NCBI GenBank assembly: GCA_964353135.1
Contig: CAYGTV010000002.1
Coordinates: 67,204 to 131,203 of the forward strand
Length of the DNA: 64,000 bases
DNA from: an uncultured Candidatus Saccharibacteria bacterium
GTDB lineage: Bacteria > Patescibacteriota > Minisyncoccia > Phycocordibacterales > UBA918
Direction: 5' to 3'
In this document: piece by piece, positions 20,385 through 51,686 of the stretch
Layout of the letters: each line of letters begins with the position of its first letter
How positions within the stretch are numbered: the stretch's first letter is position 1
Position numbers and translations under genes: made by a program
The notes under the pieces: generated by a model
The model's database searches: none
What the model saw: only the letters and a program-made list of their open reading frames with translations
Told to the model about the DNA's origin: nothing

Positions 20385-20393
20385 TACTCCTAC

Positions 20394-35767: not shown

Positions 35768-36700
35768 CTAAGAATTTACAAAACAAGTTACTTGATTTGG
35801 TCCAAAAGCGGTAGTGGTAACATAATTAGCGTTAGCCAGGCAGTTCTCTGTAATTTGTTCACATGTATCTGTTCCGGCTAGGTCGCAGGGAAGTGTTATA
35901 GGTGTTGTTCCAAACCTTGGGTCGTTAGGATCGGCAATAATTTCATCTAATGTCACATACCCAGTTTCGTCAAAATCTGCTGGATAGGTACAAACGTCGC
36001 TCATCCATAAATTTCTTTCCTCTAAAACTCCACCTCGAGAGCCACAAGACACTAAACAATCGCTTCCAGAAAATCCACCTATCCAAGATCCTCGGCTACA
36101 CGTGACCCTTAGACACCCAGCGTCGCTAGCACATATTTCTTCTGCTGCAGTTGGAGCAGGAACACAAACTAAGATCTCAGCTGCAGTTTCATTATTTGTT
36201 TCAGACCTAATAGTTCTACCTTCTTCAGCCCTACAGCCTTGAATAAAAACGGCTACGGCGTCTACGTCATTAGCAGGTATCGTTTGATTATCTGCAACTC
36301 GTGCCAGTATAATATTACCTTGTGCATCTCTTTGTGCCTCAGGTGTTGCAACCTGTGAAATATCCGGATTAAAACTAGTCAACTCAGGATTAATAACAGT
36401 CAAGATAAGAACCGCAGACATAACGATTAGCAAACCAAACAAAGCTCCTTGTATATCTTTTTTAGCCTCCCCCTTTTGGGTGACAATGTCAGTAAACATG
36501 TATTTGAGTCCTGCAATGATGATTTTAACTACCGCTAGTAGTGCAGCAATACTAATGAACATCACGTAGACTGCTTGAATATAAGCGTCAAAACTACCGC
36601 TAGCACCCTGCTCCACTCCAGGAATACCAACTAGAAAATTTTGGGCATAGGTAGTTGCTGGTAGTGTAACCAGTACTACGAGAAGAAAGAAAAATTTCAT
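35768..36700 (-). CDS. Secreted/membrane protein with a VirB2/TrbC pilin-like N-terminus (signal peptide plus two hydrophobic helices) fused to a Cys-rich C-terminal domain
   Basis: MKFFFLLVVLVTLPATTYA signal; helices YIQAVYVMFISIAALLAVVKIIIAGL and ALFGLLIVMSAVLILTVI; 18 Cys in the C-terminal 180 aa. Confidence 0.4.
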   Translation of the reverse strand: MKFFFLLVVLVTLPATTYAQNFLVGIPGVEQGASGSFDAYIQAVYVMFISIAALLAVVKIIIAGLKYMFTDIVTQKGEAKKDIQGALFGLLIVMSAVLILTVINPELTSFNPDISQVATPEAQRDAQGNIILARVADNQTIPANDVDAVAVFIQGCRAEEGRTIRSETNNETAAEILVCVPAPTAAEEICASDAGCLRVTCSRGSWIGGFSGSDCLVSCGSRGGVLEERNLWMSDVCTYPADFDETGYVTLDEIIADPNDPRFGTTPITLPCDLAGTDTCEQITENCLANANYVTTTAFGPNQVTCFVNS

Positions 36701-36706
36701 ACTAAT

Positions 36707-37912
36707 TTAGTTAGAGGTAGTTTCATTGATAATATTTCTGTATACCCAGAGGGTTTCATCAACTTTATTTTGAAAAAAGAAATTTGAGTCATTTTGCCCA
36801 AACTGAGGGTTAGTGAGATCAACTTGACGCCCTGTAGCGTCTTCAGGTGCGATAATAAATCTCCCTAAATCACGAGTAAAACTGTATTCCCACAACAGAT
36901 CGTTGCTTGTACGTGTTCCTCTGTACCAGTCATCGGGTGTATTTGGAGATGGATTGAAAGAGTCTACGCCGCAAATCACCGCTGTAGTATTAGTTTTTCC
37001 AAATGCGCATTTTTCAGGCATGAAAGTCACAGGTGTCTGATTTGGAATAAGTTCACCGACACCAATACTAAATGTGGAGTATGTACTGTCAATTACTTCA
37101 CTGTAGATTATGAACTCATCAGACCCTAATGCCGACAAACCATAGCCAGTGGCATTGAGTCGAGTGACTTGCCCATTAGTGTAAGAGTATACGTATCCCT
37201 CTAGCTCCCTGGTGGTTTTAGGGTATACAATATGCGGCCCAGCATTAGTATGATGCCAAGCAATGGTTGCTTCGACAAACGGCACGGTGAACAAGGTTGA
37301 TATGTCACTTGTGCGAGGGTTGTATTTTTTTACTATCAACTCCCCCACCCCTTCGGTAGCAAACAAAAATTCATTTTCAGCTGTTGCTGTAAAAGACACA
37401 ATTGCTTCGTTTAGTTCAAAGTTACTCAGGCGATCAGTAGTAGTACTAATGGTTCCCAATACAAAACTAGCACGAGGTCCGGTGTCGGATTGCATAAGAA
37501 CATGTTTTCCATCAGGTGTAATTGCAGCGGTAGTAGCAAGAGGGATAGTTGTAGCAGAAATTCGTTCTGATTCTTCGGTAAACAGGTTGATTTCATAGAT
37601 ATGACCAGTTCCTGATTCAACATACCGTACAACTGGATCAGATGTGCTGGCAACTATTATTTCAGCAAAACCTGCCACGGGGGTGGTTGTTAACTGTCGT
37701 AGGCGTTCAATTTGGTCAGATGGTTCTTCAGTTTCTTCTGGAACGGGTTCTTCATCAGGAATAATTACTGTTGGGTCAGTAGAATCACCAAAACCAAAGT
37801 CATTAAATGAAACGTTGTCACTGGTTGTGCCGGTAAATAGAATATATGCCCAGATCCCGATCAAGATCAGTACTATTGCAATTCCTCCGGTAATCAATAG
37901 GGTACGTTTCAT
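36707..37912 (-). CDS. Hypothetical secreted/anchored protein (N-terminal TM, acidic linker, beta-rich domain)
   Basis: Signal-anchor LLITGGIAIVLILIGIWAYILF; no motif recognised; operon with 35768 and 37916 genes. Confidence 0.4.
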   Translation of the reverse strand: MKRTLLITGGIAIVLILIGIWAYILFTGTTSDNVSFNDFGFGDSTDPTVIIPDEEPVPEETEEPSDQIERLRQLTTTPVAGFAEIIVASTSDPVVRYVESGTGHIYEINLFTEESERISATTIPLATTAAITPDGKHVLMQSDTGPRASFVLGTISTTTDRLSNFELNEAIVSFTATAENEFLFATEGVGELIVKKYNPRTSDISTLFTVPFVEATIAWHHTNAGPHIVYPKTTRELEGYVYSYTNGQVTRLNATGYGLSALGSDEFIIYSEVIDSTYSTFSIGVGELIPNQTPVTFMPEKCAFGKTNTTAVICGVDSFNPSPNTPDDWYRGTRTSNDLLWEYSFTRDLGRFIIAPEDATGRQVDLTNPQFGQNDSNFFFQNKVDETLWVYRNIINETTSN

Positions 37913-37915
37913 AGA

Positions 37916-38893
37916 TTAAAAATTCACTACTACACTATCTTCAACACCTTGTAATATCTCTGATAGCGATCGCACATGGAAGTTAAGCACAGTCCGCCCC
38001 CCAATCCCTGCCCGACTAAGCGTTATTTCGTAGGGATTTAAAACACCATTATCGGTTTCAATTTTGTTGATTTCCCACTGGGCTATATCGGGACGATTGA
38101 ACACCCGAGTATCGAGGTTGAATGGTTCAGCTTGGAGTGTTAGCACATTGCCAACTAGTGAGGTATTTGACTGTAGAGGTCGATTTTTTATGCCATAGAG
38201 TGAGTGTTTTTCGTAGAATGCAAGTTCTGGCTGTACGCTAGTCATCCTAACTGCCCGTCTAGCCAAAGTGTTTCCTTGCAGGTCAGCTACGTTTACGATC
38301 AATACCGGCGCAGATCCGCGCGGTGTTTCGAATGACATTTTGTTTCCGCCACGAATTGCCCCGTTTTCTAGGGTTTGTTGATCTACTGTCCATGTATATA
38401 CCAGCTGGTTTGAATTTAGGAAGTTTGTACCATTATGTAGAAGTGCGGTTGCATTGACTTGGCTCGTATAGCTTGGCAGCGCTCGCCCCTCATACCAATC
38501 TGGAACCCGGGTTTGTGGTTCGATGATAATATCGATATAGATTGGATTAATAGTGCGGGTGATGGTCTGTGTCGTACCTTGAGGAGTTTGTAGCGTGGCT
38601 ACGATAGTTGCATTACTCCCAGCTGCCCCGGCTACTAGTTCTGCAGTACGCTGGTTAGAAAAAACCTCGACCACTTCCCCAGCATAGGTCCAGGTAATCT
38701 CTGATCCAAATAAACTACCACTGTAGTCATCGATTGAGGCAGTAAAGGGTTCCCCTGGTCCAGGAAAACTAGGGCTGAGGGTGATTGAAGCTTCGCGGTT
38801 GTTGCTGGTGAGACTTTGGAAATTCCCTACCTGAGCAAGGCTAACAGCTGGAAGGATTGTAAGTAGAAATAGTAAGCAGTAGCGGTACCACAT
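37916..38893 (-). CDS. Hypothetical secreted protein (signal peptide)
   Basis: MWYRYCLLFLLTILPAVSLAQ signal; first gene of a three-gene operon. Confidence 0.4.
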   Translation of the reverse strand: MWYRYCLLFLLTILPAVSLAQVGNFQSLTSNNREASITLSPSFPGPGEPFTASIDDYSGSLFGSEITWTYAGEVVEVFSNQRTAELVAGAAGSNATIVATLQTPQGTTQTITRTINPIYIDIIIEPQTRVPDWYEGRALPSYTSQVNATALLHNGTNFLNSNQLVYTWTVDQQTLENGAIRGGNKMSFETPRGSAPVLIVNVADLQGNTLARRAVRMTSVQPELAFYEKHSLYGIKNRPLQSNTSLVGNVLTLQAEPFNLDTRVFNRPDIAQWEINKIETDNGVLNPYEITLSRAGIGGRTVLNFHVRSLSEILQGVEDSVVVNF

Positions 38894-39142
38894 ATACCAT
38901 ATATAGTAGCAGAAGTGAGGTATACAATAGCCAAGTTATACGTAGTATCCACAATTTATACACAGGTTGTCCGCAGAAATGAGTGGATGAAAGCAGTTGC
39001 TGTTTTTAGCAATATGTGGTATACATGTACCTAGGACTGCTTGCAGTCAAATAGTTTTTCCACAGTGTGTGGTCCCCCACATACAAATTGTAACCTGCGG
39101 CACAGAATATTGTCCGCTATCACCACTAGAAAGGAGCTCCTT

Positions 39143-39451
39143 ATGGAACTCAAAACTATTGCGTTGGCAGCCGCATTCGCTGTCGTTGGTTCGTCGCCTG
39201 TATTGGCTCAGGACATTGTCCTTGCCTCTGTTTCGTCCAGCGATGAAGTAGAAATTTTGCCTGCTGGTCCATCTCCCTGGTGCGCCCAAAATGGTAATGA
39301 TGGTTGCTACCAGACCATGTTCATTGAATCGGGGCCAATTCTCGCAAGTGCTTCAGCCAAGTCTTCCAAAAACTTTGCTGCCGAAAATGGCTACGGCGAT
39401 CTGGAACAAGTGCACGTCGCAGCAATGACCCCTTACTTCTTTAAAGACTGA
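39143..39451 (+). CDS. Small secreted protein (signal peptide, two Cys)
   Basis: SD AAAGGAG before ATG; MELKTIALAAAFAVVGSSPVLAQ signal; terminator at 39470-39500. Confidence 0.45.
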   Translation: MELKTIALAAAFAVVGSSPVLAQDIVLASVSSSDEVEILPAGPSPWCAQNGNDGCYQTMFIESGPILASASAKSSKNFAAENGYGDLEQVHVAAMTPYFFKD

Positions 39452-39504
39452 GTTGATTTCGATCAACAACAAAAGCGACAAGTCCGTTTTACAGCGGGCT
39501 TGTT

Positions 39505-40350
39505 TTAATTTGGGTGTTTCCAAACTAATCTGATCCATGAAAGTATGAATGGATAAATCGGAAAAGCTGAGCCAACTACTGCTAGCAAGAACAACATCTT
39601 TTTTTTCAATCCCTTTTCTCCGCTCAGTGATTTAATCCCGGTTGTGCTATAGATAAACCAAACTAGCATTAATTGTAATACGCCTAATAAAAATACAAAT
39701 GCAAATGGTATGATCATTAGTCTAATTGGGTCGAAAGCAAAACCAAAGAAGTTTTCCGTCGCTATGCTGATTAATCTACTGACTCCAATCGCACCTTCAC
39801 CGACTAACATAATAACCTGCCCAGCTAATGTTATAAACTCTGTGCCTAACGGAATTTCGGCAATGTAGTTATATATGTATAATGTGATTGCTAGTCCTAC
39901 AATACTCATAAGAGCAAATGGTAATTGAATAGCGAAATACCAAAATATTACCCAACTGCCAACCCAGGCATTGATCGCTGTAACTTTAGTTCTGCCAAGC
40001 AGCAGATTTGAATTTTTGGCTTTATGTTCTACTTTTTTACGAACTAGTGGCATTCGACCGGGTTGGTAGTTCGGTTCCTGGTTAGTGTTCGCGTACTCCC
40101 TCTGTACTCGGTTGATCTCGTTTGGTCGGAGGTTGGTGTACCGCTCTGTAGCATCATACTGCTTAGAAAAAGCCTCGTCTGTGGTTTCATGAAAAGGATT
40201 TTGATCAGTATCAGTATTTACAGATTGTCTTTTTCTACGGGGAACTGTATTGCGACGTCTTGCATCACGTCTGATGTTTCCAGGGTTAGAGCCTGCTCCT
40301 GGTGAAGGGGGTATTTGTCTAGTTTCAAGTTGGACGTTAGAGACTTGCAT
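39505..40350 (-). CDS. Hypothetical membrane protein with a disordered basic N-terminus and 4-5 TM helices, adjacent to the T4SS cluster
   Basis: ORF; TM-rich C-terminal half; separated from VirB4 by a terminator. Confidence 0.4.
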   Translation of the reverse strand: MQVSNVQLETRQIPPSPGAGSNPGNIRRDARRRNTVPRRKRQSVNTDTDQNPFHETTDEAFSKQYDATERYTNLRPNEINRVQREYANTNQEPNYQPGRMPLVRKKVEHKAKNSNLLLGRTKVTAINAWVGSWVIFWYFAIQLPFALMSIVGLAITLYIYNYIAEIPLGTEFITLAGQVIMLVGEGAIGVSRLISIATENFFGFAFDPIRLMIIPFAFVFLLGVLQLMLVWFIYSTTGIKSLSGEKGLKKKMLFLLAVVGSAFPIYPFILSWIRLVWKHPN

Positions 40351-40382
40351 TGATTATATTTTACACCACAAGTCATAACAAT

Positions 40383-40415
40383 AAACGGTGGCGAACACTG
40401 CTCGCCACCGTTTAT
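40383..40415. terminator. Terminator AAACGGTGGCGA-ACACTGC-TCGCCACCGTTT
   Basis: 12-bp perfect stem downstream of the VirB4 ATPase gene. Confidence 0.55.
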
Positions 40416-40425
40416 TGTGTCCGTG

Positions 40426-42234
40426 TTACATCCCGGCTGCTTCCAATTCCTCGCGGGCTTTTTTGATTGCCATGAGTTGCGATGGGTCCGAGGTGATGAT
40501 TTGATCCTCGGTGTAGCTGGCGATGATTTTGATGGCGACGTGTTTGAGTCCAGCAAAGAAGATCCCCTCCCCTACGTTTGATTCCAGCAGTAGGAATTTT
40601 TCCTCGTCGGTTAGGTTAAAGGTTTTCTGGATGTTATCGATCGCTGTTGGCGATTGTTTCATCAGTAGCTGGATGCTGGAGTTGGTGATCATCGGGACAC
40701 CGTAAGGTGAGCGCAGGAAGTCATCCACATCCTGAGTGATAGTAGCGATCCCCAGGTAGTACTTTCGACCGCGCTTTGCAAGTGAGAACAAGAACGATGC
40801 AGTGTCTTCGCTTTTCATCATCCACCACGCCTCGTCGATCACCATCAGACGCTTGGCCAGTCGTCTACGGACACTTCCCCAGATAAAGTTGGTGATGATG
40901 TACATGGCGATGGTTTTTAATTCGTCCTCCATGTCACGCAAACTGAACACCACAAATTTTTGGTTGATGTCGACGTTGGTTGGTTGGTTCATGAACCCGG
41001 CCCAGGTTCCACTGGTGTATTTTTGTAGTCTAGCAATCAGTGAGGCACTGCCGTCCATGCCGGCTAGAACCATTTCAAAGTCAGACAGTAGTGGTGGTTC
41101 CATGTCAGAAAAGTCAGCGTCACCAGTGATGTCCTTGAGGGCATAGGTTTCCTGGATTGCGAGGTCGAGGATGGTCTCTTCCTCCGGTGTCAATGCGGTG
41201 TATTCGTTGTTTCCGCCGAGCATGAGCCGAAACAGTCCAATGAGTTCGATGATGTGTGAACGCAGCACGTCGCGGGGATCCTCGTCGCTCGCTGGTGGCG
41301 GGAGGTCAAACGGATTAACGTGGTGGTTGGATGAAAGTGAGATGTTGAAAAACCGACCACCGGTGGCTTCTGCCAAGTACTCGTATTCACGCTCTGGGTC
41401 GAGCACGATCACCTCGGTCCCAAACATTAGTGATCGCAGGATTTCTAGTTTCAGACCGTATGACTTCCCGGCACCAGAGGTCGCAAACGTTACCGAGTTG
41501 TAGTTGGTGAGACTATATCGATCAAACAAAATGAGTGACGAGTTGTGCCGGTTGATACCGTACAAAATCCCAGTGTCCGAAGTGAGGTCGAACGAAGTAA
41601 ACGGAAAGAAGCTCGACAGTGGCGACGAATTGAATTTGCTGTGCACCTGTAGGATGTCATCGTTGAGCGGAAAGACACTTTTAATCCCCTGCTCTTGTTG
41701 GAATAGAGCTGGTTTCATATTGATCAGCCTTGAGTCGAGCATACCCCGGATGTCGTTTTCTACTTTGTTGATGGCAGCTTCGTCTGGACCGTAGATTGAA
41801 ATATAAAACCCAACGTCAAACAGCTTTTCTTCTGACTGTTGTAGTTTGTCTCGGAGTTCTTCGAGGTTACGGTACGATGCCTCGAGCTGTGGATCACGCA
41901 CTTCCCCACGCTCTTGCTTGATACTGATCTGGCTTTGTACCTCGGCTACTTTTTTCTGGAACTTTTTTAAGGAAGCGGCCGTGTCTACTGGGTGAATGAA
42001 AATCGAAACATCGATTTCCTTGGCCAGGTTTAATACTGGTTCAATCCATCCGTCGTTGAGATACCGTGGATAGTTTACCGCGTAGTATGTCCGGGCATTT
42101 ACCCCACTGATGTTGATTGCCCGCGGACTGATTTTGATTGCAGAGGGTGCAATAACATCAGTCAAAGTCATAAGCTGATCTTTGAATGGGTCATCTTTTT
42201 TATTGGGCGGTTGGAGGAAGTCTAAAAAAGCCAT
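40426..42234 (-). CDS. VirB4/TraC-family conjugation-type ATPase, C-terminal (ATPase) part
   Basis: Walker A TSGAGKSYGLK, Walker B MVIDEAWWMM, VirB4 family motifs; 602 aa covers only the C-terminal two-thirds of a typical VirB4. Confidence 0.8.
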   Translation of the reverse strand: MAFLDFLQPPNKKDDPFKDQLMTLTDVIAPSAIKISPRAINISGVNARTYYAVNYPRYLNDGWIEPVLNLAKEIDVSIFIHPVDTAASLKKFQKKVAEVQSQISIKQERGEVRDPQLEASYRNLEELRDKLQQSEEKLFDVGFYISIYGPDEAAINKVENDIRGMLDSRLINMKPALFQQEQGIKSVFPLNDDILQVHSKFNSSPLSSFFPFTSFDLTSDTGILYGINRHNSSLILFDRYSLTNYNSVTFATSGAGKSYGLKLEILRSLMFGTEVIVLDPEREYEYLAEATGGRFFNISLSSNHHVNPFDLPPPASDEDPRDVLRSHIIELIGLFRLMLGGNNEYTALTPEEETILDLAIQETYALKDITGDADFSDMEPPLLSDFEMVLAGMDGSASLIARLQKYTSGTWAGFMNQPTNVDINQKFVVFSLRDMEDELKTIAMYIITNFIWGSVRRRLAKRLMVIDEAWWMMKSEDTASFLFSLAKRGRKYYLGIATITQDVDDFLRSPYGVPMITNSSIQLLMKQSPTAIDNIQKTFNLTDEEKFLLLESNVGEGIFFAGLKHVAIKIIASYTEDQIITSDPSQLMAIKKAREELEAAGM

Positions 42235-42239
42235 ATAAA

Positions 42240-42872
42240 TTATTGTACATTAGGAGCCGCACCGGTTGGATCGCCAGGGTTATATAAATGGTAGTACAAC
42301 TCAACTAGTTCGTCCTTTTGTAGTCTCATGGTTCGAACCCCAACCCCAGCCAGTCCCTGAGTGACCATACCAACTCTCTGTTCTAACTGTAGGCGGTGTT
42401 CTTCGAATTGTTGATCGTTGGTTAGGGCTGCTGTACTACCGCCACTAAATAAACTAGTAACACCCTTTTGCAGGTTTAGTTTGGTAGGTGAATATGGAAT
42501 AACCACAAAGAAGCTCTTGCTCATCACATCAACGTCAGTTGTAAACGAACGAATGAATTCCATGTATTCAGCCAGCTGGATCTTCATTAGGTCGTTGTCC
42601 TGCTTCCCTTCCATACTTGCAAGTAAACCAAGGTATGGTTCGATGTTCAATTTTCTTGATTGTACATAGATTTGTAAACTGAAATCAAGGGTATTTAAAA
42701 AACTTTGGAACTGTTGCAGGATGGCTTTTTGTTCATCGAGTGATTTGAGGGCAAAGTTAACTGATGAAGCCAGCAGCACCATGAGCATTTCTCCATCACG
42801 CTTAATAACCACACCATCTTTGATGTCGCGGATTGGAACAAAACGTTGAGTGGCTGCTTTTTGGTTTGGCAT
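42240..42872 (-). CDS. VirB4-family N-terminal domain encoded as a separate ORF
   Basis: FVPIRDIKDGVVIKRDGEMLMVL...SLDEQKAILQQFQSFLNTL matches the N-terminal region of VirB4/TraC-like ATPases; stop codon 5 nt before the ATPase ORF start, in a different frame. Confidence 0.6.
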   Translation of the reverse strand: MPNQKAATQRFVPIRDIKDGVVIKRDGEMLMVLLASSVNFALKSLDEQKAILQQFQSFLNTLDFSLQIYVQSRKLNIEPYLGLLASMEGKQDNDLMKIQLAEYMEFIRSFTTDVDVMSKSFFVVIPYSPTKLNLQKGVTSLFSGGSTAALTNDQQFEEHRLQLEQRVGMVTQGLAGVGVRTMRLQKDELVELYYHLYNPGDPTGAAPNVQ

Positions 42873-42873
42873 A

Positions 42874-43299
42874 CTATTCTGGTTTTTGCATAGCTTGTAA
42901 TTCGAGTTTTCTGGTCAGTGAGGTGATGCTCTTGTGTGATGAACCGCGGTTGCTAGGAGTTACAGCATACGATGAGGTTGGTTCTGATTTTATTTTGGTC
43001 TCATCTTTGTACACAACGTCAGCTTTTTGATGCCAGAGGTATAGTTTGTCATTGGTGACGTAGTTGTACACGGCCTCCAAGAAGTAAGAAAATGGTCGGT
43101 TGTTGACTGGGAAAAAGGCCAGTGCGGCAGCCAAGAGAGCAATCGGTAGTCCTAGTAGTACAAATACAATGAACGGAAATATGAAAAACATTACAACCGC
43201 TGCACCCACGCCACCACCGAGGTACACAAATTGCCGCCAGGTCAGTGGTCCAAAGATCTTGTCCTCGATTTCAATAAATTGTGGTACTTCAAACCGCAT
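42874..43299 (-). CDS. PrgI-family (VirB3-like) small membrane protein of Gram-positive-type T4SS
   Basis: N-terminus MRFEVPQFIEIEDKIFGPLTWRQFVYL, characteristic of PrgI-family proteins; two TM helices. Confidence 0.7.
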   Translation of the reverse strand: MRFEVPQFIEIEDKIFGPLTWRQFVYLGGGVGAAVVMFFIFPFIVFVLLGLPIALLAAALAFFPVNNRPFSYFLEAVYNYVTNDKLYLWHQKADVVYKDETKIKSEPTSSYAVTPSNRGSSHKSITSLTRKLELQAMQKPE

Positions 43300-43447
43300 C
43301 CGAATAGAAATAACTATGGCTTACTGCCAGTAGTTGTGTGTTGAGTAATAATGGTCGACCAAGTATTCATACGTATATCTGTGTCCTGTTATTTCTAACA
43401 GGACACGTAGATACTAGTAGTATACACTGCGTCGACTATAGAACCGG

Positions 43448-44017
43448 CTATTTTTCAGGAGTGCCCCACTGGGCAGTGGTGTTTTTCTCAGCGTTTCCTT
43501 GACCATTGAGAATGGTCTCTTGGCTGGCAGCCTGGTGCACCGGTTCTTCTTCGGTACGGATAGTTTCCATATCGTGAGCCATTGTTCGGATTGGTTGGAG
43601 TTGCTTGAATGCTGCTTCGGTTTCAGCTAACTCAGCCGCAAGGGTGTCCTGACTGTCAGTGGATACTTTTGTCATCTCAGCAGGCTGAGGTTGTGTAGTA
43701 ATTGGTACTGGGGTGTTTGTTGGTTGATTGAGCGGAGCGAGGAAATCAAGCACATCTGCTGTGATTCTCATAGCGTCTGGTTGCGATATCTGGAGACGTT
43801 CTACAAATAGTTCTGGAAGTTTTTCCTGCGGAACCAGCCCAAGAATAACGTCGCCAACGGCAACTAAAAAATGCAAATGTCTATCTTGATCCGATATACC
43901 ATGTCGCTGGGAAATAGTATACAAAGCTTGGCCGTTTTCTGATCCTTCGTATAGCGATCGCTGCTTGGCAGTTGCTGTGTTGTAGGCATCTTCACGTTGT
44001 TCGTCGGTGAAATTCAT
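43448..44017 (-). CDS. Hypothetical protein in the T4SS cluster
   Basis: ORF co-oriented and tightly spaced with the VirB6-like gene; no motif. Confidence 0.35.
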   Translation of the reverse strand: MNFTDEQREDAYNTATAKQRSLYEGSENGQALYTISQRHGISDQDRHLHFLVAVGDVILGLVPQEKLPELFVERLQISQPDAMRITADVLDFLAPLNQPTNTPVPITTQPQPAEMTKVSTDSQDTLAAELAETEAAFKQLQPIRTMAHDMETIRTEEEPVHQAASQETILNGQGNAEKNTTAQWGTPEK

Positions 44018-44022
44018 AAATT

Positions 44023-46440
44023 TTATTCGTTGAAGAAATCCTCCTTGGCTTTTTTAGAAGTTATGTAAGCTGCCATCCGTGGATCGTTTTGTTTGTAGAA
44101 CTTTATTGCTCCTGCTAGGTCCGTTCGTTCATCTGCAGTCATTTCACTCTTGCCTTGGTTCGCTGCACGAGCAATCGCCTTCATCATATCCACTGTCATA
44201 TTGTTACCAACCTCGGTGAGTGTCCCTGTTTTACGGTCAAAGAACGTCTCAAGTGGTAGTTTACCAATTGTTTCGGTGTTGGATTTAATATATTTTTCAC
44301 GTTGTTTTTTGAGAACGTCACCAGTAAGTGGTGTAGCAGCTGTGGTTGTCCCGTCAAATTTATTCTTTGCATCCTTATTTTGAATGTCAACCCGGCCCTT
44401 ACTGATGATATTTTCAATTCCCTTTGAACGTGTTGCAGATATTTTATCGTATTGTTCAATGCTGATTTTACCTGAGTCTTTGAGTGTCTCTAGTTGTTTT
44501 TCTGATAATTGTGAAGCAATAGCCTCAGTATTGAGTCTCTCAAATGAGAAGTTGCTCAACTCTTCGTTAGATAATCTGCTAACCATTTTAGCAAGACCTT
44601 CCATAGCATCTGCTAGCTCCTCAGCTTCTGACCCGACGTCGTTGAGTACCTTCTCAAACCCAGCAAAGCGCGCAGTTTCTCGACCCGCCCCCATGTCTTT
44701 CTTTTGTTGTCGAGTGAAGTCCCCAGTCTCTCCAAGAGCTTTGATTTGCTCAGCTGATAGTTTGCCAAGTATTTCAGGTGAGTTGCGGACATTTTCGCTT
44801 AGGCGCCGCAACTCTGCCGTTGACATTTTACCAACCACACCGCCAATTTTAGTGTTAGCTTCGTCAATTTTTTTACGTACGTCACGCCGTTCGTCTGGAG
44901 TCAAGGTATTACCAGGAGCTAGCTTTGCTTCTTCCTCTTTTAGTTTCTTGCGCTCTTCTCTAAGAGTTTTTTCTCGATCAAATTCATCGCCGTTTTGGTT
45001 AAATGAGTTGTTTTGTCTTGCGATTCGTTCTCGTTGTTGATCAATAGTTTCAGAACCTAAAACGCTGGCACGGGTACCTCTATCAAGTCCTGCTCCAACA
45101 GTACTATCAAGTCCACGAGCAGCTGCACGCCCAATCGCGCCCTTATTACCAGCCCAAGCAGTGACACGATTGAGTTGACGACGGCTGACTTCGCTACCTT
45201 CATTGATACCACGAGCCATATAACCACCGGCTCCCCGGCCAACTCCCCGAGCAGCGTAACTACCGACAGCACCATAGGCAGCGAGTGGACGTCGTACAGC
45301 CCCGCGCACTCGAGAGTTAACACCATTGCTTACTTTTGCCATCACTCCACTACCATCTGAGGCAAGTTTTCCTGCAACTTGTACTGCAGCAATAAGGAAA
45401 CCAGCAGAAAGAATAAACGGTCCAAGCCCTCCGGCAAAGTTCGCAGCAATTTCTGACACAGTTCCTGTTGGGTTAAATACGTCGCTATTTTGCTGTGTTA
45501 GGTTTCCTAGTCCTCCCCCCTGGGCCGAACCACCTGCCCCAACTCCGTCACCAAAGAAGTTATCAAGTATTGATGCTGCAAAAAATATCATAATGATATA
45601 TACCGGTGCGTAGAATGATTGTTTTAGAAACCCTGACCAGTATTTGTCACTCATGTTTTTGAAGCCTGGGAATATCCAACCTAGGAACATAAAAGGCGAA
45701 AGCACCATGTATACCGATAGCGCAATAAAGCGAATGATAAGCATAATTCCACCAACACCAAACGCAAAAGCACCGATGATGTTAATGATTCCAATACCAA
45801 ATATATACGACCACGGAGCTGCCCCGTCACCGTCTAAACCAGGTGCGTTTTCTCCACTAAAGTTAATCGTTGAAATACCCATTAACCGGAAGAATGTATC
45901 GCCAACTCGGACAGATGTTGGGTTGCCATCAAGGTCATCGCCAATTGTGTCAAAACCAGCAACAGCAATTTCCGAGGCAAGGATGTTGGTGAAATCAACT
46001 ACAAATTTAGTGATAAACAAACTAAAGTTGATTAGAAGAGCGGCGATTATTAGTGAGACGAGCGTCTTTTTGGTTTGAGAATCATCACTGTTGAGGATCA
46101 TCTTGAAGCCAATGTACACGAGACCAAAAATAAACAAGATATTGAATAGGTCTCTAACCAGTACCCAAAGTTGGTCAACCGCAAGTCCGACTCCACCAGA
46201 GTTGTAAATTGAACCAAAATTGATTACAAACGTGTTGATCCCGTAGTCCAGTAGTGAACCTCCAACCCAAAGTAGCCACCCAGTTAAGTTTGAGATTACA
46301 AAGAAGAGAATTCCTTCGATTGTATCCTGGGCAAAAGCCACCTGTGGGAACAAAGCCAACATAGCTACTCCAAACAAACTCAGGATAGTTATCCATAGTG
46401 TTAGTTTGTTTTCGAGTAGGAAATGCTTCATAAGTATCAA
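44023..46440 (-). CDS. VirB6/TrbL-like polytopic membrane protein with a Gly-rich linker and long C-terminal coiled-coil extension
   Basis: Signal/TM then 6+ TM helices; C-terminal about 400 aa hydrophilic, K/E-rich repeats. Confidence 0.55.
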   Translation of the reverse strand: MILMKHFLLENKLTLWITILSLFGVAMLALFPQVAFAQDTIEGILFFVISNLTGWLLWVGGSLLDYGINTFVINFGSIYNSGGVGLAVDQLWVLVRDLFNILFIFGLVYIGFKMILNSDDSQTKKTLVSLIIAALLINFSLFITKFVVDFTNILASEIAVAGFDTIGDDLDGNPTSVRVGDTFFRLMGISTINFSGENAPGLDGDGAAPWSYIFGIGIINIIGAFAFGVGGIMLIIRFIALSVYMVLSPFMFLGWIFPGFKNMSDKYWSGFLKQSFYAPVYIIMIFFAASILDNFFGDGVGAGGSAQGGGLGNLTQQNSDVFNPTGTVSEIAANFAGGLGPFILSAGFLIAAVQVAGKLASDGSGVMAKVSNGVNSRVRGAVRRPLAAYGAVGSYAARGVGRGAGGYMARGINEGSEVSRRQLNRVTAWAGNKGAIGRAAARGLDSTVGAGLDRGTRASVLGSETIDQQRERIARQNNSFNQNGDEFDREKTLREERKKLKEEEAKLAPGNTLTPDERRDVRKKIDEANTKIGGVVGKMSTAELRRLSENVRNSPEILGKLSAEQIKALGETGDFTRQQKKDMGAGRETARFAGFEKVLNDVGSEAEELADAMEGLAKMVSRLSNEELSNFSFERLNTEAIASQLSEKQLETLKDSGKISIEQYDKISATRSKGIENIISKGRVDIQNKDAKNKFDGTTTAATPLTGDVLKKQREKYIKSNTETIGKLPLETFFDRKTGTLTEVGNNMTVDMMKAIARAANQGKSEMTADERTDLAGAIKFYKQNDPRMAAYITSKKAKEDFFNE

Positions 46441-46448
46441 TCGTTTCT

Positions 46449-47909
46449 TTAGTTGGTTTGAGTACTGCTGGTTGCTGTGGTTGTGCTTAGTCTATCTAGA
46501 ACGGCATTTAAGCCTCTACTGTCAACAGGATCAATACCAATAAGACTCATTTGTTCTCTCCACTCGTTTAGGTTTCGACTTTTTCGTCCATCGTCAGTGA
46601 TATCAAGGTTAGAGTACTCGATAAATATTGCAATTTGGCGATCAGATGTTGCACTGTCGTATTCAGTTAGCAGACTTGTAAGTGCAGTGATGTTGTCGTT
46701 ACTAATAAATATTTCATTAGCAATTTCTTCATTTAGTATAGCTGCTACGTCTCGTGCCCCTTGAGGATTTTCATCGTCTAGTATGAACTCTGTAAGTAGA
46801 TCAAGTAATAGCTGACTCTCTAATCGATAATTTCTTTCAGAGCGTAATGCGTCAGAAAGATTGTCTCTCGCAGTCCCAGTGATGTTGCCTGATCCATCAA
46901 TACTTTCCTGATACAGAGCGTCAAGGTATGAACCATCATAACCGCCGTAACTCTGTCCGGTGTTACCAGATAGCCCAAGTAGCCCAGCTGCTCCGGAAAT
47001 AGCCTGGTTTGCAAGTGCACCTAACAGTTCCCCAATGTATTCGTTGACTTCATCCGCTTCCACTAAAACGTCTTGTCCAGCGCCTAGAACTTTGTTTAGT
47101 TGGCCAGCAATTGTTACGCCTGGAGTAGTGATTGTGCAGTTTTCTTCGTTTGTACCTTCGATGAGTTCACACACTGATTGAGACAGGAAACCTCCGCCAA
47201 ATTCCAGTAGCTGTAGCTCCTCCCCCTGGGCATTGATGAGTCGGGCTCGCCCAGCTGCTTGTGCGCTGAGTACTGCACCATAGGGTGTGTACGTTTGGGG
47301 TGTGGCGGTGATAGTCAGCCAGTCAGCCAGCCCTCGCCCTGGATCAGTACCATCGATGAATCCTTGGATGTTATCGATCACCCCGCTGAGGGTACAGGTT
47401 GGCGCGGATTGTTCTCCGTCTCTTCCCTGTTGGTATTGCACAGCGACTGCAATTTGAACATCTAGCCGGAACGGCGCACAAATAAAGGATCCGACGTCAC
47501 CCAATTCACTGATGAATTGTCCAAATTCTTGGTCTGCCACGTCTGTGAGGAACCCTCGTAGATCAGTCACAAATGCTGGTCGTCCTTGGAAGCCGGAGTT
47601 TACCCAGTTTAAAAATTCGTTTGCCATCATACTGATCGCACGTTTAGCCAAAGACCACGCAATTCCGTCTAGACTGATACTCTTACCCCAACCAAGAGTT
47701 TCTGTTGCAGCCGATATAGTTTCTTGGGCGGTTGACCAAAAGTTCTGCAAGGTATTTCTTGGGTCAAATACAACACTACCACTGGCTGCCGCTTCGACAG
47801 TCTCTACCTGACTAGTTGGTGCTTGTGGCACATAAACCATCACAAAGGCAAACACAACAAAAATTGTGCCAACTAGTAATTTTTTTAAAGCTAGAAAAAG
47901 AGTATCCAT
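46449..47909 (-). CDS. Hypothetical secreted protein (signal peptide) in the T4SS cluster
   Basis: N-terminal hydrophobic signal FVVFAFVMVYVP; 4-nt spacing to neighbours. Confidence 0.4.
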   Translation of the reverse strand: MDTLFLALKKLLVGTIFVVFAFVMVYVPQAPTSQVETVEAAASGSVVFDPRNTLQNFWSTAQETISAATETLGWGKSISLDGIAWSLAKRAISMMANEFLNWVNSGFQGRPAFVTDLRGFLTDVADQEFGQFISELGDVGSFICAPFRLDVQIAVAVQYQQGRDGEQSAPTCTLSGVIDNIQGFIDGTDPGRGLADWLTITATPQTYTPYGAVLSAQAAGRARLINAQGEELQLLEFGGGFLSQSVCELIEGTNEENCTITTPGVTIAGQLNKVLGAGQDVLVEADEVNEYIGELLGALANQAISGAAGLLGLSGNTGQSYGGYDGSYLDALYQESIDGSGNITGTARDNLSDALRSERNYRLESQLLLDLLTEFILDDENPQGARDVAAILNEEIANEIFISNDNITALTSLLTEYDSATSDRQIAIFIEYSNLDITDDGRKSRNLNEWREQMSLIGIDPVDSRGLNAVLDRLSTTTATSSTQTN

Positions 47910-47913
47910 ATTA

Positions 47914-48804
47914 TTAAGAATTAAATTCTGGGCTAAAGATTATGAATGATAAAGCTGGATCATTTGGGCCAACAAGCGATGCGTATGGTTCCAGGATCAA
48001 GTACATATTTTCTAGCGCAATTCGTAGTCCTAGTGCATCGTCTTGGTAGCGTTTGATGCGCACAAGCGCGAGGGCTGGGTCTTCGGCTGCGATCACCATT
48101 GCTCCAATGCTCTCGTGTAGGGCGTTAAAGGTATTAATTAGATCAAGGTGTTGCTTTACAGCAATCGCAGGAACAGGAACAGTTAATGCAATATCGCGCA
48201 TGTTTTTGTATGCTTCAGAAATGTTATTAAGCTCGTCAATGTATGACTGATCTGGGGTTATATCTTTGAGAGCGTCAGATAGAATATCGATCTCCCCTCG
48301 ACCGTTATTAATATTGTTATTGGTGATAGTCAGGGCAATAGTATTGGCGTAATCGAGTATGTCTGCGTCCTCCCATTGTGTTAGTACAGTAATATCTGGC
48401 ACATCATATAAATCATATGCTGCCTGGCTGGTCATGGTATCTATAGCGCGACCGACCACTTCTTCTTGGGTTCGTCCAAAAGGTCCAGCGGTTTTTGACC
48501 TAACTAGATCCTCGATAAAATCAATTCCAAGCTGACCAGTAAGTGTGTCTGGTAGCTCATAGTCTGTGTCTACTTGATCAAGAATGATTGGGGCTGTAGT
48601 AACAAACTCGTCCCGCCAGTCCTCGATACCATTGCGGTCTTCATCGAGAACCTCGATTGCGACCCGGGGCTGTGCCACAACCACCGCAGCTGGTTGACTT
48701 TGAAAATTCGATACACCAAAGTTGCTTAGTACGTAGGCACCAGCAACCAGTGCAAATCCAACTAAACAAGCGCCGATAACGCGCGGATTAAAATTCCGTT
48801 CCAT
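47914..48804 (-). CDS. Bitopic membrane protein, first gene of the T4SS cluster (possible VirB8-like scaffold)
   Basis: Short cytoplasmic N-terminus, one TM (VIGACLVGFALVAGAYVL), about 260-aa ectodomain. Confidence 0.3.
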   Translation of the reverse strand: MERNFNPRVIGACLVGFALVAGAYVLSNFGVSNFQSQPAAVVVAQPRVAIEVLDEDRNGIEDWRDEFVTTAPIILDQVDTDYELPDTLTGQLGIDFIEDLVRSKTAGPFGRTQEEVVGRAIDTMTSQAAYDLYDVPDITVLTQWEDADILDYANTIALTITNNNINNGRGEIDILSDALKDITPDQSYIDELNNISEAYKNMRDIALTVPVPAIAVKQHLDLINTFNALHESIGAMVIAAEDPALALVRIKRYQDDALGLRIALENMYLILEPYASLVGPNDPALSFIIFSPEFNS

Positions 48805-48882
48805 AGTATTTAGTATAGCAGTCGTACATCAGCCAGACTGCAGTTACTACCTATATATGTGTCTATCTGTGGAAAATTGCCT

Positions 48883-49683
48883 CTATTTTCTCTGTAAAAG
48901 TCTAATCAGATCAATAAAATTAGTAATAGAGAGGTCCTCTGCCCTACTCTCTGCAACTAATCCTAATGTTGTGAGTGAATGACCCACAGATTCTTTTTGA
49001 AATAATTTTGCCAGGTTGCCTGCCAGTTGTTTGCGTTTTTGTCCAAAACCAGCGTGTACCACATCAAAAAAAACATCGTCAGATATACCGTGCAGCCTAG
49101 AACGATTGATGTTATAGATTGCGACAATGGCTGAGTCGACTGCCGGTGGCGGCGTAAAGTGTCCGCGTTTAATAGTATCAATGTATGCAGGTTCACCAAA
49201 GACTTTGACTGACAGTGAGAGGATGGATTCTTTTGGATCTCTTGCAATCCGCTCGGCCACCTCTTTTTGAATCAAAAAGACCAGGGTGTTTGGCTGGATG
49301 TCAGACTCCAGGCACTGACGAAATAGAAGCCCAGAAATATAATATGGAATGTTGGCCACTACTTTAAAGGCTTGATCAACTAAGCCAAACATAGCCATGT
49401 CGAGTTTCCGCGCATCATGATGATGTATGACTAGTTGCCCGTTTGTGATTTCGTTTACAAATGTTTCTTTGAGTGAATCGATTGCCCGCAGGTCGGCTTC
49501 GACGGCGATTACGTTGCATCCTCGCTTCAGAATTTCCGCCGTTAGGATCCCGGTCCCTGGCCCGATTTCAAGCACAGTCTCTCCAACCGCTAGGTTAGCA
49601 GCGTCACACATTTTTTTAGGCACAAAGTCACTGTTCAGAAAGTGTTGCCCGAGGGACTTTTTGTGTTCAAACTTTTCTTTCAC
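48883..49683 (-). CDS. rsmA: 16S rRNA (adenine1518/1519-N6)-dimethyltransferase RsmA/KsgA
   Basis: SAM motif LEIGPGTGILT; KsgA family length and pattern. Confidence 0.85.
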   Translation of the reverse strand: MKEKFEHKKSLGQHFLNSDFVPKKMCDAANLAVGETVLEIGPGTGILTAEILKRGCNVIAVEADLRAIDSLKETFVNEITNGQLVIHHHDARKLDMAMFGLVDQAFKVVANIPYYISGLLFRQCLESDIQPNTLVFLIQKEVAERIARDPKESILSLSVKVFGEPAYIDTIKRGHFTPPPAVDSAIVAIYNINRSRLHGISDDVFFDVVHAGFGQKRKQLAGNLAKLFQKESVGHSLTTLGLVAESRAEDLSITNFIDLIRLLQRK

Positions 49684-49709
49684 AAATGTAGCGTACGCGG
49701 AATCGGAAA

Positions 49710-51686
49710 TTAATCAAGATACACCGTTGTCTCGTACCCGCTGCTATCCCCTCCTCCACCAAAGCCCTTTGGTTCTGATGCTTCTACATGTTCGCCACTA
49801 ATGTCATTGATGAACTGTGATGGAAGATTTACTTTTTGCTGCCCAAAGATGGTTCGCATGTGGGCGTAGGTGAGATAGATTTTTTTCTCGGCTCGGGTGA
49901 GGGCAACATAGAACAAACGTCGCTCTTCTTCTTTGTCAGTTTTTCCATCGTCGAGGCGTTCATGTGGAAAGAGTCCTTCTTCGAGACCAGTGATAAACAC
50001 ATATGGAAACTCGAGCCCTTTAGCGGCGTGAATGGTCATCAGTCGGACAGCGTTTTGTTCTTCTTTATCTTTGAGTTCATCTTGGTCAGATTGCAGCGCT
50101 GCGGTTTCCAGCAGCATCTCGACTGCTTCAGTTGGGTCGACCGTATCAAACCGACTCGCAAGCGTAACGAGCTCGCGCAAGTTTTCGATTCGCTCTAACG
50201 CTTCTTCGGTTCCCTCTTCTTTCAAGTGATCTTCGATGCCAGATCGCTTCATGATGAATTTGATTGTTTCAGATAGCGTTTTTTCTGTAGCTGCTTTAGC
50301 GATATCCATCATGATGTCATCAAACTTTTTTACTTTAGCTTGAGCGCCAGCGTTAAGTTCAGATCGTTTCCCTTCGATTACTTTAAGCATCGTGACTTTC
50401 CCAATCCCACGAGCTGGGGTGTTGATTACCCGAGTCATGTCAGCATTACTACCTGGGTTTAAAGCTAGCCTGAGGTATGACAGTACATCCTTCACTTCTT
50501 TTCGTTCGAAAAATTTAGTCCCGAGTAATTGGTACGGGATTTCAAAATTGAGGAATGCTTCCTCAAGGGCACGTGATTGAAAGTTTGTTCGATACAACAC
50601 GGCGATGTTGCTTGGATCAGCACCATCATTGATCAGCTCTTGGGCTGTCATTGCGATGTATTCCGCTTCGTCGTATCCAGTCATCCCGGCGTAGAGGGTA
50701 ATTTTTTCACCTTCGTGATTGTTGGTAAAAACATTTTTCTCAACTCGGTTTTTATTTTTCTTGATGATGTCGTTACTCGCTGCGATGATGGTTTGGGTCG
50801 ACCGGTAATTTTCTTCGAGCAAGATAGTCGTTGAGTTTGGGAAGTGGTTTTCAAATTGAAGCACATTTTTAATATCCGCACCTCGCCAACTGTAGATGTT
50901 TTGGTCGATGTCGCCTACTACACATATATTGTGTGCGTCTCCAGCCAGTAGCTCGGCAATTCGAAATTGCACTTTGTTGGTGTCCTGGTACTCGTCAACG
51001 TGAATGTATTTGTAACGGGCCTGAAGAGTCTCACGCACGGTTTTATTTTCCTCGAGCATGCGTAGAGTCTTTACTAAAAGATCATCAAAATCGAGTGACT
51101 GCTCTTTATATAATATGTCTTCGTATTTTTCCCAGACTTGTGCCACGACTTCTTCGAAAAACGATCCAGCGGCGTCACTGTACGCCAGACGTGAAACCGC
51201 ATCCCCTTTAGCGCGACTAATCGCAGAGATAATTTTCCGTGGTTCAAATTCTTTGGGGTTATAGCCGGCTTGCTCGATTCCTTGTTTCACAGCTTTTTGG
51301 CTGTCACTGCGATCATAAATGGTGAAGTGCCGGCGCAACCCAACCGCGTCGTGAAACTCACGCAGTAGCCGTACTCCCAGCGCGTGGAAAGTCGTAACCA
51401 CTGGTTGGCTGTCTAGTACCGCCCGGTTAGAAGGGGGGAACTTGTGGGTGAGTGCCACCGCTCGTTCACGCATTTCACTCGCTGACTTGTTGGTAAATGT
51501 CATCGCGAGAATATTGTGCGGTGCAGTCCCCTGATGGATGAGGTGTACGATCCGATGCGTGATCACTCTAGTTTTTCCTGACCCAGCACCAGCCAAAACC
51601 ATCACTGGTCCTTCGGTATGCAACACCGCTTGTTTTTGTGGTTCGTTTAATCCATTGGTGTAGGGTAGCTCTGGAGTGTCGGTCAT
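49710..51686 (-). CDS. pcrA: ATP-dependent DNA helicase UvrD/PcrA family
   Basis: Motif I AGAGSGKTRVITHRI, motif II VDEYQDTN, SF1 motifs throughout. Confidence 0.85.
   Translation of the reverse strand: MTDTPELPYTNGLNEPQKQAVLHTEGPVMVLAGAGSGKTRVITHRIVHLIHQGTAPHNILAMTFTNKSASEMRERAVALTHKFPPSNRAVLDSQPVVTTFHALGVRLLREFHDAVGLRRHFTIYDRSDSQKAVKQGIEQAGYNPKEFEPRKIISAISRAKGDAVSRLAYSDAAGSFFEEVVAQVWEKYEDILYKEQSLDFDDLLVKTLRMLEENKTVRETLQARYKYIHVDEYQDTNKVQFRIAELLAGDAHNICVVGDIDQNIYSWRGADIKNVLQFENHFPNSTTILLEENYRSTQTIIAASNDIIKKNKNRVEKNVFTNNHEGEKITLYAGMTGYDEAEYIAMTAQELINDGADPSNIAVLYRTNFQSRALEEAFLNFEIPYQLLGTKFFERKEVKDVLSYLRLALNPGSNADMTRVINTPARGIGKVTMLKVIEGKRSELNAGAQAKVKKFDDIMMDIAKAATEKTLSETIKFIMKRSGIEDHLKEEGTEEALERIENLRELVTLASRFDTVDPTEAVEMLLETAALQSDQDELKDKEEQNAVRLMTIHAAKGLEFPYVFITGLEEGLFPHERLDDGKTDKEEERRLFYVALTRAEKKIYLTYAHMRTIFGQQKVNLPSQFINDISGEHVEASEPKGFGGGGDSSGYETTVYLD

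Follow-up and report, generated by a model that had tools for sequence, protein, structure and literature searches.

A probable core type IV secretion locus of the Patescibacteria clade beside dnaA in an uncultured bacterium

By analysing a 64,000-nucleotide stretch of the genome of an uncultured Candidatus Saccharibacteria bacterium (contig CAYGTV010000002.1, positions 67,204 to 131,203; this whole stretch is referred to as the window), we delimited a cluster of 11 co-oriented, tightly packed genes on the minus strand, between positions 35768 and 48804. The cluster almost certainly encodes a type IV secretion system (T4SS) of the Patescibacteria clade. It is also highly probable that the locus is chromosomal, that it derives from the conjugation machinery of monoderm bacteria (class MPF-FATA) with loss of the DNA-processing module, and that it is inherited vertically as a core locus beside the replication origin. 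An earlier sequence-only reading had described eight tightly spaced genes between 39505 and 48804. All eight open reading frames (ORFs) lie where that reading placed them and the start of the cluster stands, but its end does not, since three more genes, including one for a VirB2-like pilin, extend the cluster downstream to 35768 (Table 1). Every ORF of the cluster is intact, and the successive gaps within the first eight genes measure 4, 8, 5, 148, 1, 5 and 75 bp (range 1-148 bp). The system itself, its Paceibacteria context and its non-conjugative interpretation have already been published, and the locus represents no new kind of system.

The VirB4 ATPase and its partners carry this identification. 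The 602 amino acid (aa) ORF matches the NCBIfam model conju_CD1110 over positions 182-733 of 752 with 348 bits against a cut-off of 325, other VirB4 models being weaker (VirB4_CagE 97 bits, TraC-F 167 bits), and it also matches Pfam P-loop_TraG (88.7 bits) and AAA_10 as well as the crystallised VirB4 C-domain in the PDB (4ag5, E=3e-38). The 210-aa ORF upstream matches the NCBIfam models VirB4_plasma at positions 100-259 (E=2.5e-10), conju_CD1110 at positions 4-102 and TrsD (E=1.4e-3), and a protein identical to its product has a precomputed Pfam match to PF26593 (TraC-like). When profiles made from orthologues are aligned to the 783-aa VirB4 of a C. perfringens plasmid, that of the 210-aa ORF covers residues 35-193 and that of the 602-aa ORF residues 201-754; the two ORFs together therefore make up a complete VirB4, divided into an N-domain gene and an ATPase gene as first proposed. 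To place the locus among its relatives, one genome per species was scanned, which gave 579 confirmed relatives, and the best 80 loci were analysed by tblastn. The TrsD-like gene is a separate ORF in 79 of these 80 loci, the VirB4 ORFs of related loci measure 578-712 aa and none is fused to the N-domain: the division into TrsD and VirB4 is fixed throughout the 80 loci analysed. A gap of 1 bp separates the TrsD-like gene from the PrgI gene, whose product scores 42.8 bits against the Pfam PF12666 cut-off of 27, in agreement with the initial PrgI call. Its profile matches the annotated PrgI proteins of two Gram-positive plasmids, and PrgI was found in 77 of the 80 loci.

Comparison with plasmid-borne and patescibacterial relatives indicates where this machinery may have come from. 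Among the VirB4 relatives listed, the 120 nearest are metagenomic sequences with 85-97% identity, and those that carry a name bear the labels Kaiserbacteria, Parcubacteria or Nomurabacteria. Among plasmid VirB4s, identity to the 602-aa ATPase is 28-36% for the best-ranked of those listed, whose hosts are all monoderm (Streptomyces, Embleya, Pontibacillus, Priestia, Clostridium, Brevibacillus and Enterococcus), and stays below 60% in all 2,064 matching plasmid records. These values point to a VirB4 that is of monoderm (MPF-FATA) affinity and has its closest relatives in Patescibacteria. The hidden Markov models of the 11 families were also run against all plus-strand ORFs of two canonical conjugative loci from Gram-positive bacteria. 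Matches came only from the PrgI and VirB4 models and from the TrsD model, which aligned to the VirB4 N-terminus; the remaining models scored at most 13 bits, which is typical of transmembrane (TM) and compositional noise. One such hit, of p281 to the ORF that follows the C. perfringens hydrolase (11 bits), was not accepted.

The third canonical component is an extended VirB6. The 805-aa protein matches TrbL (PF04610) with E=2.2e-4 and 21.5 bits, under the cut-off of 25.9, and 10 of its 33 orthologues match TrbL (best E 2e-8) while one matches TrbL_4. Together with the polytopic topology, these matches in orthologues bear out the VirB6/TrbL-like assignment of the sequence-only reading. A signal peptide and ~6-7 hydrophobic segments reaching residue ~353 (seven were counted) precede a hydrophilic tail of 444 aa; the linker at residues 300-460 is rich in Gly, Ala and Arg and leads into a charged region of 345 aa (461-805). 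The Gly-rich linker and the charged extension, both noted at the outset, are thus real (Lys plus Glu make up 22% of the tail), but the continuous 400-aa coiled coil that had been described is not: 24 Gly and 6 Pro interrupt residues 461-805, the longest stretch free of both spans 41 residues, and the heptad-like periodicity of the tail exceeds that of shuffled sequences only locally. Hydrophilic tails of 269-599 aa (median 354 aa) are present in 31 of the 33 orthologues, and it is this conservation that makes the protein an "extended VirB6". Profile scans detected no similarity of the tail to any family. The Arg-rich linker in front of it suggests, by the positive-inside rule, that the tail is cytoplasmic. 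Between VirB6 and PrgI lies the 189-aa protein (p189), which had been left without a family and indeed has no match in Pfam or NCBIfam. In nearly all loci inspected the same gap holds a similarly sized ORF devoid of TM segments, and many of these ORFs share the N-terminal motif of p189; the sequences of p189 and of p281 diverge fast.

One of the three genes that the sequence-only reading did not reach is the pilin-like one, 3.7 kb downstream of virB4 and in the same orientation. Its product scores 27.3 bits with Pfam T4SS_pilin (PF18895; cut-off 26.6) and consists of a signal peptide and two TM segments (residues 1 to ~112) followed by a domain of ~200 aa with 12 Cys. The N-terminal module was found in 63 of the 80 loci, mostly as a single copy, within ORFs of 122-615 aa, and a search of 1.84 billion representative sequences returned 10,290 matches at E<=1e-3, almost all of which, among those listed, cover only query residues ~1-125 and belong to proteins of 156-461 aa. 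The C-terminal domain (35768-36365), by comparison, had no match in any of the 80 related loci. A widespread N-terminal module and a C-terminal part without matches lead us to describe the protein as a conserved VirB2-like membrane module bearing a hypervariable ectodomain, and this ectodomain may be the clearest candidate in the cluster for a role in host recognition.

Other products of the cluster are also predicted to lie outside the cytoplasm. A 36-sequence family profile of p325 matches the Ig-like Hoc protein of phage T4 (PDB 3shs, E=3.2e-7), and p325 occurs in 70 of the 80 loci at an unchanged position. The family profile of p401, present in 66 of the 80 loci, gives weak matches to TolB beta-propellers (E ~2e-3), which merely suggest a beta-propeller; which of p401 and the pilin gene comes first varies from locus to locus. 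An alignment of 62 p486 sequences revealed four invariant Cys and the motifs WxNSGFQGxPAF and ADEINE in the N-terminal domain, and p486 was detected in 53-55 of the 80 loci. This protein has no Pfam or NCBIfam match, and comparison with the PDB gave no credible match by profile and none by Foldseek at E<=0.001. AlphaFold2, supplied with the same alignment, returned a model with a pLDDT of 59 that is confident only at residues ~345-465 and leaves the conserved N-terminal domain unmodelled. In p296, a nearly invariant motif past the TM helix (residues ~54-65), DxDxNGxEDWRD (also written DxDxDGxxDW), resembles a calcium-binding loop, and the model of the protein is a four-helix bundle. A profile search of the PDB with p296 produced a single match, to a glucoamylase linker, which was rejected as spurious. 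In the 12 closest loci inspected, VirB4 is followed by a positional orthologue of p281, a diverged four-TM protein of 247-379 aa. The topologies in Table 1 agree with those first given for the outer genes of the octet, namely a bitopic membrane protein (N-terminal TM in p296), a secreted protein (N-terminal signal or TM in p486) and, at the other end, a membrane protein with a disordered, basic N-terminus (residues 1-125 of p281, followed by four TM segments).

Such surface proteins raise the question of whether the cluster is chiefly an organelle for adhesion or pilus biogenesis, in which VirB4, PrgI and VirB6 would do no more than assemble and display the VirB2-like protein and its variable ectodomain alongside the Ig-like and propeller proteins for attachment to the host, with no translocated substrate. 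A VirB2-like gene is unusual among monoderm T4SSs (PMC12857230), its C-terminal domain is hypervariable over a conserved membrane module, Ig-like and propeller-like surface proteins are encoded in the cluster, and no coupling protein was found nearby, all of which would suit this interpretation. However, adhesion is already provided for by the type IV pili of the genome, a translocon would account at least equally well for the extremely conserved VirB4 and for the large VirB6 with its conserved hydrophilic tail, and a 200-aa domain on VirB2 may clash with canonical pilus packing. We consider a purely adhesive organelle unlikely. Transport at the host interface, rather than adhesion alone, has in our view about an even chance of being the function of the cluster.

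The chromosomal position of the cluster and its conservation argue for a core locus. ksgA (48883-49683) lies 78 bp upstream with a UvrD/PcrA helicase gene beyond it; the downstream flank comprises yidC, rnpA and rpmH on the opposite strand and then dnaA and dnaN, so that the gene order reads pcrA-ksgA-(11 genes)-yidC-rnpA-rpmH/dnaA-dnaN. The best 80 loci all belong to Patescibacteria and are labelled Paceibacteria, Kaiserbacteria, Nomurabacteria, Adlerbacteria or Campbellbacteria, some carrying the depositor label 'Saccharibacteria'. The synteny comparison that the sequence-only reading had called for showed that these loci keep the order pcrA-ksgA-p296-p486-VirB6-(p189)-PrgI-TrsD-VirB4-(p281)-p325-p401/pilin-yidC-dnaA-dnaN, scored where orthologues were detectable and the contig was long enough. 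Median identity across the same loci is 69% for VirB4 (range 67-90%), 64% for PcrA, 58% for DnaA and 47% for KsgA. Because flanks and order are conserved and VirB4 is more conserved than DnaA, the cluster is best explained as a vertically inherited core locus and not as an integrative and conjugative element (ICE).

Direct searches for a mobile element agree with this conclusion. Profile scans of ~50 window ORFs detected no relaxase, no type IV coupling protein (T4CP)/FtsK/TraG-D family member and no integrase. By tblastn, neither two Gram-positive relaxases and MobC nor two CD1115-family T4CPs had a match in the 64-kb window or in 81 related loci, the source genome being covered over the window and the related loci over ~10 kb around virB4; within the same limits, the SLT/lysozyme homologues of two canonical Gram-positive loci were also absent. 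Both methods thus agree with the original observation that the window holds no relaxase or VirD4 coupling protein. No hydrolase domain was detected in the 11 genes of the cluster, the nearest being in an M23/LysM protein at 57257-58171; this is the hydrolase placed ~9 kb away by the sequence-only reading, and the measured distance is 8.45 kb. A VirB8-like (NTF2) fold was likewise not detected in the cluster, p296 being modelled as a helical bundle and the conserved domain of p486 being unmodelled; since that domain could not be modelled, it is possibly a divergent hydrolase or a VirB8 analogue. The GC content of the cluster (0.44-0.48) is the same as in the rest of the window, and no flanking direct repeats that could serve as att sites were found beyond short repeats at chance level.

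An ordinary conjugative element (an ICE or an integrated plasmid) that has its relaxase, coupling protein and integrase beyond the window would account for the homology of VirB4, PrgI and VirB6 to those of Gram-positive conjugative plasmids and for their colinearity (VirB6-PrgI-VirB4). Nevertheless, housekeeping genes stand on both flanks inside the window (ksgA and pcrA on one side, yidC, rnpA, rpmH, dnaA and dnaN on the other), flanks and order recur in 80 species-level genomes, and integrase, att-like repeat and compositional anomaly were all not found in the window. In addition, T4CP and relaxase homologues are absent within ~10 kb of virB4 in the window and in 81 related loci, whereas canonical Gram-positive loci keep T4CP, relaxase and hydrolase within a few kb of virB4. 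We therefore regard an ordinary conjugative element as very improbable. The sequence-only reading had named an integrase, a relaxase and att sites at the flanks as the mark of an ICE; what is found there instead is housekeeping genes in conserved order and no repeats. The sequence-only reading missed the proximity to dnaA. Decay of an ancient conjugative element into a functionless remnant would explain why VirB4 is split, why DNA-processing genes are gone and why many components are unrecognisable, yet the ORFs are intact and tightly spaced, the split is fixed and each half of the protein is conserved in 79-80 of 80 species, VirB4 is conserved beyond DnaA, and the orthologous system of Southlakia epibionticum is essential (Wang et al., 2023; PMC10633639). 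We give the idea of a remnant practically no credence, and an intact, vertically inherited T4SS is the interpretation followed below.

Table 1. Genes of the T4SS cluster in the order of transcription
Product	Position in window	Strand	Length and features
p296, bitopic membrane protein	47914..48804	(-)	296 aa; single N-terminal TM (9-27), conserved motif, all-alpha ectodomain
p486, secreted or membrane-anchored protein	46449..47909	(-)	486 aa; N-terminal signal/TM, conserved N-terminal domain, C-terminal helical bundle
Extended VirB6/TrbL-like polytopic membrane protein	44023..46440	(-)	805 aa; signal peptide, ~6-7 TM, linker, charged C-terminal region
p189, small soluble protein without TM	43448..44017	(-)	189 aa; conserved N-terminal domain of ~95 aa, disordered-looking C-terminus
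PrgI-family (VirB3-like) membrane protein	42874..43299	(-)	141 aa; Pfam PF12666
TrsD-like protein, VirB4 N-terminal domain as its own gene	42240..42872	(-)	210 aa; NCBIfam and Pfam profiles
VirB4-family ATPase, central and C-terminal P-loop domains	40426..42234	(-)	602 aa; conju_CD1110, P-loop_TraG, AAA_10
p281, membrane protein	39505..40350	(-)	281 aa; basic N-terminus of disordered-looking composition (1-125), 4 TM
p325, secreted protein with Ig-like repeats	37916..38893	(-)	325 aa; signal peptide, three W..NG-containing repeats; outside 39505-48804
p401, membrane-anchored extracytoplasmic protein, putative beta-propeller	36707..37912	(-)	401 aa; TM 6-24; outside 39505-48804
VirB2-like pilin module with Cys-rich C-terminal domain	35768..36700	(-)	Pfam PF18895; outside 39505-48804

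Several features of the surrounding sequence deserve mention in their own right. The cluster, ksgA and pcrA (35768-51686, 16 kb) all lie on the minus strand immediately to the right of the divergent dnaA/rpmH junction (~34.1-34.4 kb), and the cumulative GC skew has its minimum at ~31-38 kb. If oriC is situated at the dnaA/rpmH junction, the T4SS cluster, ksgA and pcrA are transcribed head-on to replication, an arrangement that is the same in related genomes. A scan of the whole window for DnaA boxes found 12 against a shuffled expectation of 17.8, and with a count below expectation oriC cannot be placed from the boxes. Three DnaA-box-like 9-mers (one mismatch to TTATCCACA) fall within 120 bp at 38945-39064. 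They form part of a 611-bp insert (38894-39504) between p325 and p281, a gap that spans only a few to ~70 bp in the 12 closest loci inspected, and they lie upstream of an ORF on the opposite strand of the insert (ATG, 39144-39451; 102 aa) that has a good ribosome-binding site (AAAGGAG) and whose product carries a signal peptide. This ORF has no homologue in the 80 loci, and past it, at 39477-39504, lies a hairpin with a 12-bp stem. Apart from this hairpin, consensus scans for promoters and terminators gave results at chance level, and Rfam and tRNA scans of the window returned nothing but three tRNAs, which lie far from the cluster.

The rest of the window encodes housekeeping functions (PolA, RuvABC, Mur ligase, TyrRS, PBP1 and PNPase) and type IV pilus components. 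The latter comprise a PilO-like protein (3626-4150) with two unassigned neighbours, PilM (4686-5774) and a PilB/T2SSE ATPase (21706-23439); their presence indicates a separate type IV pilus system beside the T4SS. A 563-aa protein at 1279-2970 combines an AAA_21/AAA_15 ATPase with an OLD-like TOPRIM domain, as in OLD-family nucleases, a type frequent in defence systems. A Peptidase_C39-like protein (20376-21101, 241 aa) adjoins polA, and no link to the T4SS is established for it.

In line with the published interpretation of such systems (Quinonero-Coronel et al., 2025; PMC12102498; PMC10633639; PMC12857230) and with the negative tests for an ICE, we infer that a host-interaction or uptake machine is likelier here than a conjugative element, as the sequence-only reading had suggested. 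By analogy with Southlakia epibionticum, the cluster would support epibiotic life by transporting proteins or other macromolecules either to the host or from it, and not by conjugation. The steps that follow for PrgI, VirB4, VirB6 and the pilin are drawn from established T4SS biology. PrgI would tether a VirB4 hexamer to the membrane beside the VirB6 channel, and the TrsD-like N-domain would complement this hexamer in trans. By hydrolysing ATP, VirB4 could then extract and assemble the VirB2-like subunit and also power translocation through VirB6, while the extracytoplasmic proteins may span the wall and contact the host cell. A more specific and doubtful proposal, based on domain layout and conservation patterns, is that Paceibacteria use a variant architecture of the known system. 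It has two parts: that a single pilin module with its rapidly diversifying, disulfide-rich ectodomain would be a host-range determinant which replaces the pilin arrays of Saccharimonadia, and that the conserved VirB6 tail and the small soluble p189-type protein would stand in for the coupling protein, serving a T4CP-independent translocon as its cytoplasmic receptor for substrates.

Transport could also be directed inward. In this alternative the cluster imports DNA or other macromolecules, as do archaeal Ced and H. pylori ComB, and feeds a cell devoid of nucleotide biosynthesis with nucleic acids and macromolecules of the host. Patescibacteria lack de novo nucleotide synthesis, growth of Southlakia needs its T4SS and not comEC, for which reason another acquisition route has been postulated (PMC12102498; PMC12857230), and import T4SSs need no relaxase. 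The weak match of VirB4 to CedB (E=4.7e-9) also goes in this direction; however, it reaches 35.4 bits against an equivalog cut-off of 700 and is confined to residues 435-506, the P-loop region, CedA-type partners not having been specifically searched for. Moreover, profile scans recognised no DNA-binding or nuclease component in the cluster, and the window carries separate type IV pilus genes (PilM, PilO and PilB-like), type IV pili being the structures that give competence in Saccharibacteria (PMC12857230). The direction of transport is not readable from sequence. A dedicated import machine is thus a minority possibility, and we return to a non-conjugative machine at the host interface as the preferred interpretation.

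Several points weigh against this interpretation. Essentiality has been established in one Saccharimonadia species only. No substrate, effector or coupling protein was identified in the window, and VirD4-like genes are present in most Patescibacteria, usually far from virB4 (PMC12102498); a distant VirD4-like gene elsewhere in the genome may reopen the case for DNA transfer or uptake. The VirB4 affinity proposed here comes from profile scores and identities, membership of the VirB6 family leans on orthologues because the 805-aa protein itself is sub-threshold in Pfam, the beta-propeller call for p401 is weak (E ~2e-3), and p486, p189 and p281 are without a fold or family match.

The patescibacterial T4SS is among the few conserved envelope machines of a lineage that holds a large share of bacterial diversity, and it is essential to epibiotic life in the only species tested. 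The window offers a clean and complete Paceibacteria example, with 11 genes, defined boundaries and flanks that place the cluster in the core chromosome by dnaA. Among the details useful for experiments are the fixed TrsD/VirB4 split, the conserved VirB6 tail, the hypervariable C-terminal domain of the pilin and the Ig-repeat and probable propeller proteins. What the locus adds for Paceibacteria specifically is the single long, variable pilin-like protein, the lack of a recognisable VirB8 or hydrolase in the cluster and the conserved accessory proteins.

Patescibacterial T4SSs are now treated as a recognised newcomer class in a 2025 review of T4SS diversity and nomenclature (PMC12857230). Quinonero-Coronel et al. 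found VirB4 in 2,417 of 3,035 Patescibacteria genomes surveyed and showed that most of these proteins form a monophyletic clade nested in MPF-FATA, with TrsD, PrgI/VirB3, VirB6 and VirB2-like pilins near virB4, almost no relaxases and, in Paceibacteria, a neighbourhood rich in dnaA, dnaN, rnpA, ksgA and rpmH (PMC12102498). The window locus shares with these systems the absence of a relaxase or T4CP nearby and a chromosomal position near dnaA, dnaN and ksgA, as in Paceibacteria. By transposon sequencing, Wang et al. (2023; PMC10633639) showed that the T4SS genes of Southlakia epibionticum, which lacks coupling and relaxase proteins in this system, are essential for epibiotic growth, the essential set including PrgI, a TrsD-like gene, VirB4, an extended VirB6 and a pilin array. 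The repertoire of that locus (SEML1_0006-0019) and of the clade is like the one described here (VirB4, an adjacent TrsD-like protein, PrgI/VirB3, an extended VirB6 and one or more VirB2-like pilins), and the order PrgI, TrsD-like, VirB4 is that of SEML1_0010, 0009 and 0008. Unlike the window locus, Southlakia has six short pilins (~127-139 aa) in an array, an NTF2-like (VirB8-like) protein and peptidase/lysozyme genes by virB4; the window locus has instead a single long pilin-like gene, whose product bears a variable, Cys-rich ectodomain, and no detectable VirB8-like fold or cluster hydrolase. Six of its products (p296, p486, p189, p281, p325 and p401) have no family assignment, and such genes are drawn in grey in Figure 6 of PMC12102498.

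Among the MPF-FATA systems of Firmicutes and Actinobacteria (CD1110-family VirB4 loci, Prg/Pcf of pCF10, and Trs of pGO1 with TrsD/TrsE), VirB4 and PrgI are homologous to those of the window, the VirB6, PrgI, VirB4 gene order is common to the window locus and Gram-positive conjugative loci, and the pGO1 subclass also has a separate TrsD-type N-domain protein. The window locus differs from these loci in lacking a T4CP, a relaxase, MobC and an SLT/lysozyme hydrolase, in the low identity (28-36%) of its VirB4 to the best-ranked plasmid VirB4s, and in being a core part of the chromosome and not a mobile element. A further difference is its VirB2-like pilin, a component missing from monoderm conjugative systems (PMC12857230). 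The VirB6 of the window locus recalls the extended VirB6 proteins of the Rickettsiales RvhB6 and F TraG types, in which a polytopic N-region is joined to a large hydrophilic C-proximal domain (PMC12857230), but its tail has no sequence similarity to any family. Finally, Bordetella Ptl, Brucella VirB, archaeal Ced and H. pylori ComB have no relaxase either, and Ptl and Brucella VirB also lack a T4CP (PMC12102498). Three of these systems (Ptl, Brucella VirB and ComB) belong to diderm bacteria and have core complexes of VirB7/9/10, the fourth, Ced, belongs to archaea, and none has specific homology to the window locus beyond VirB4. Such systems show that a VirB4-centred machine can perform non-conjugative transport.

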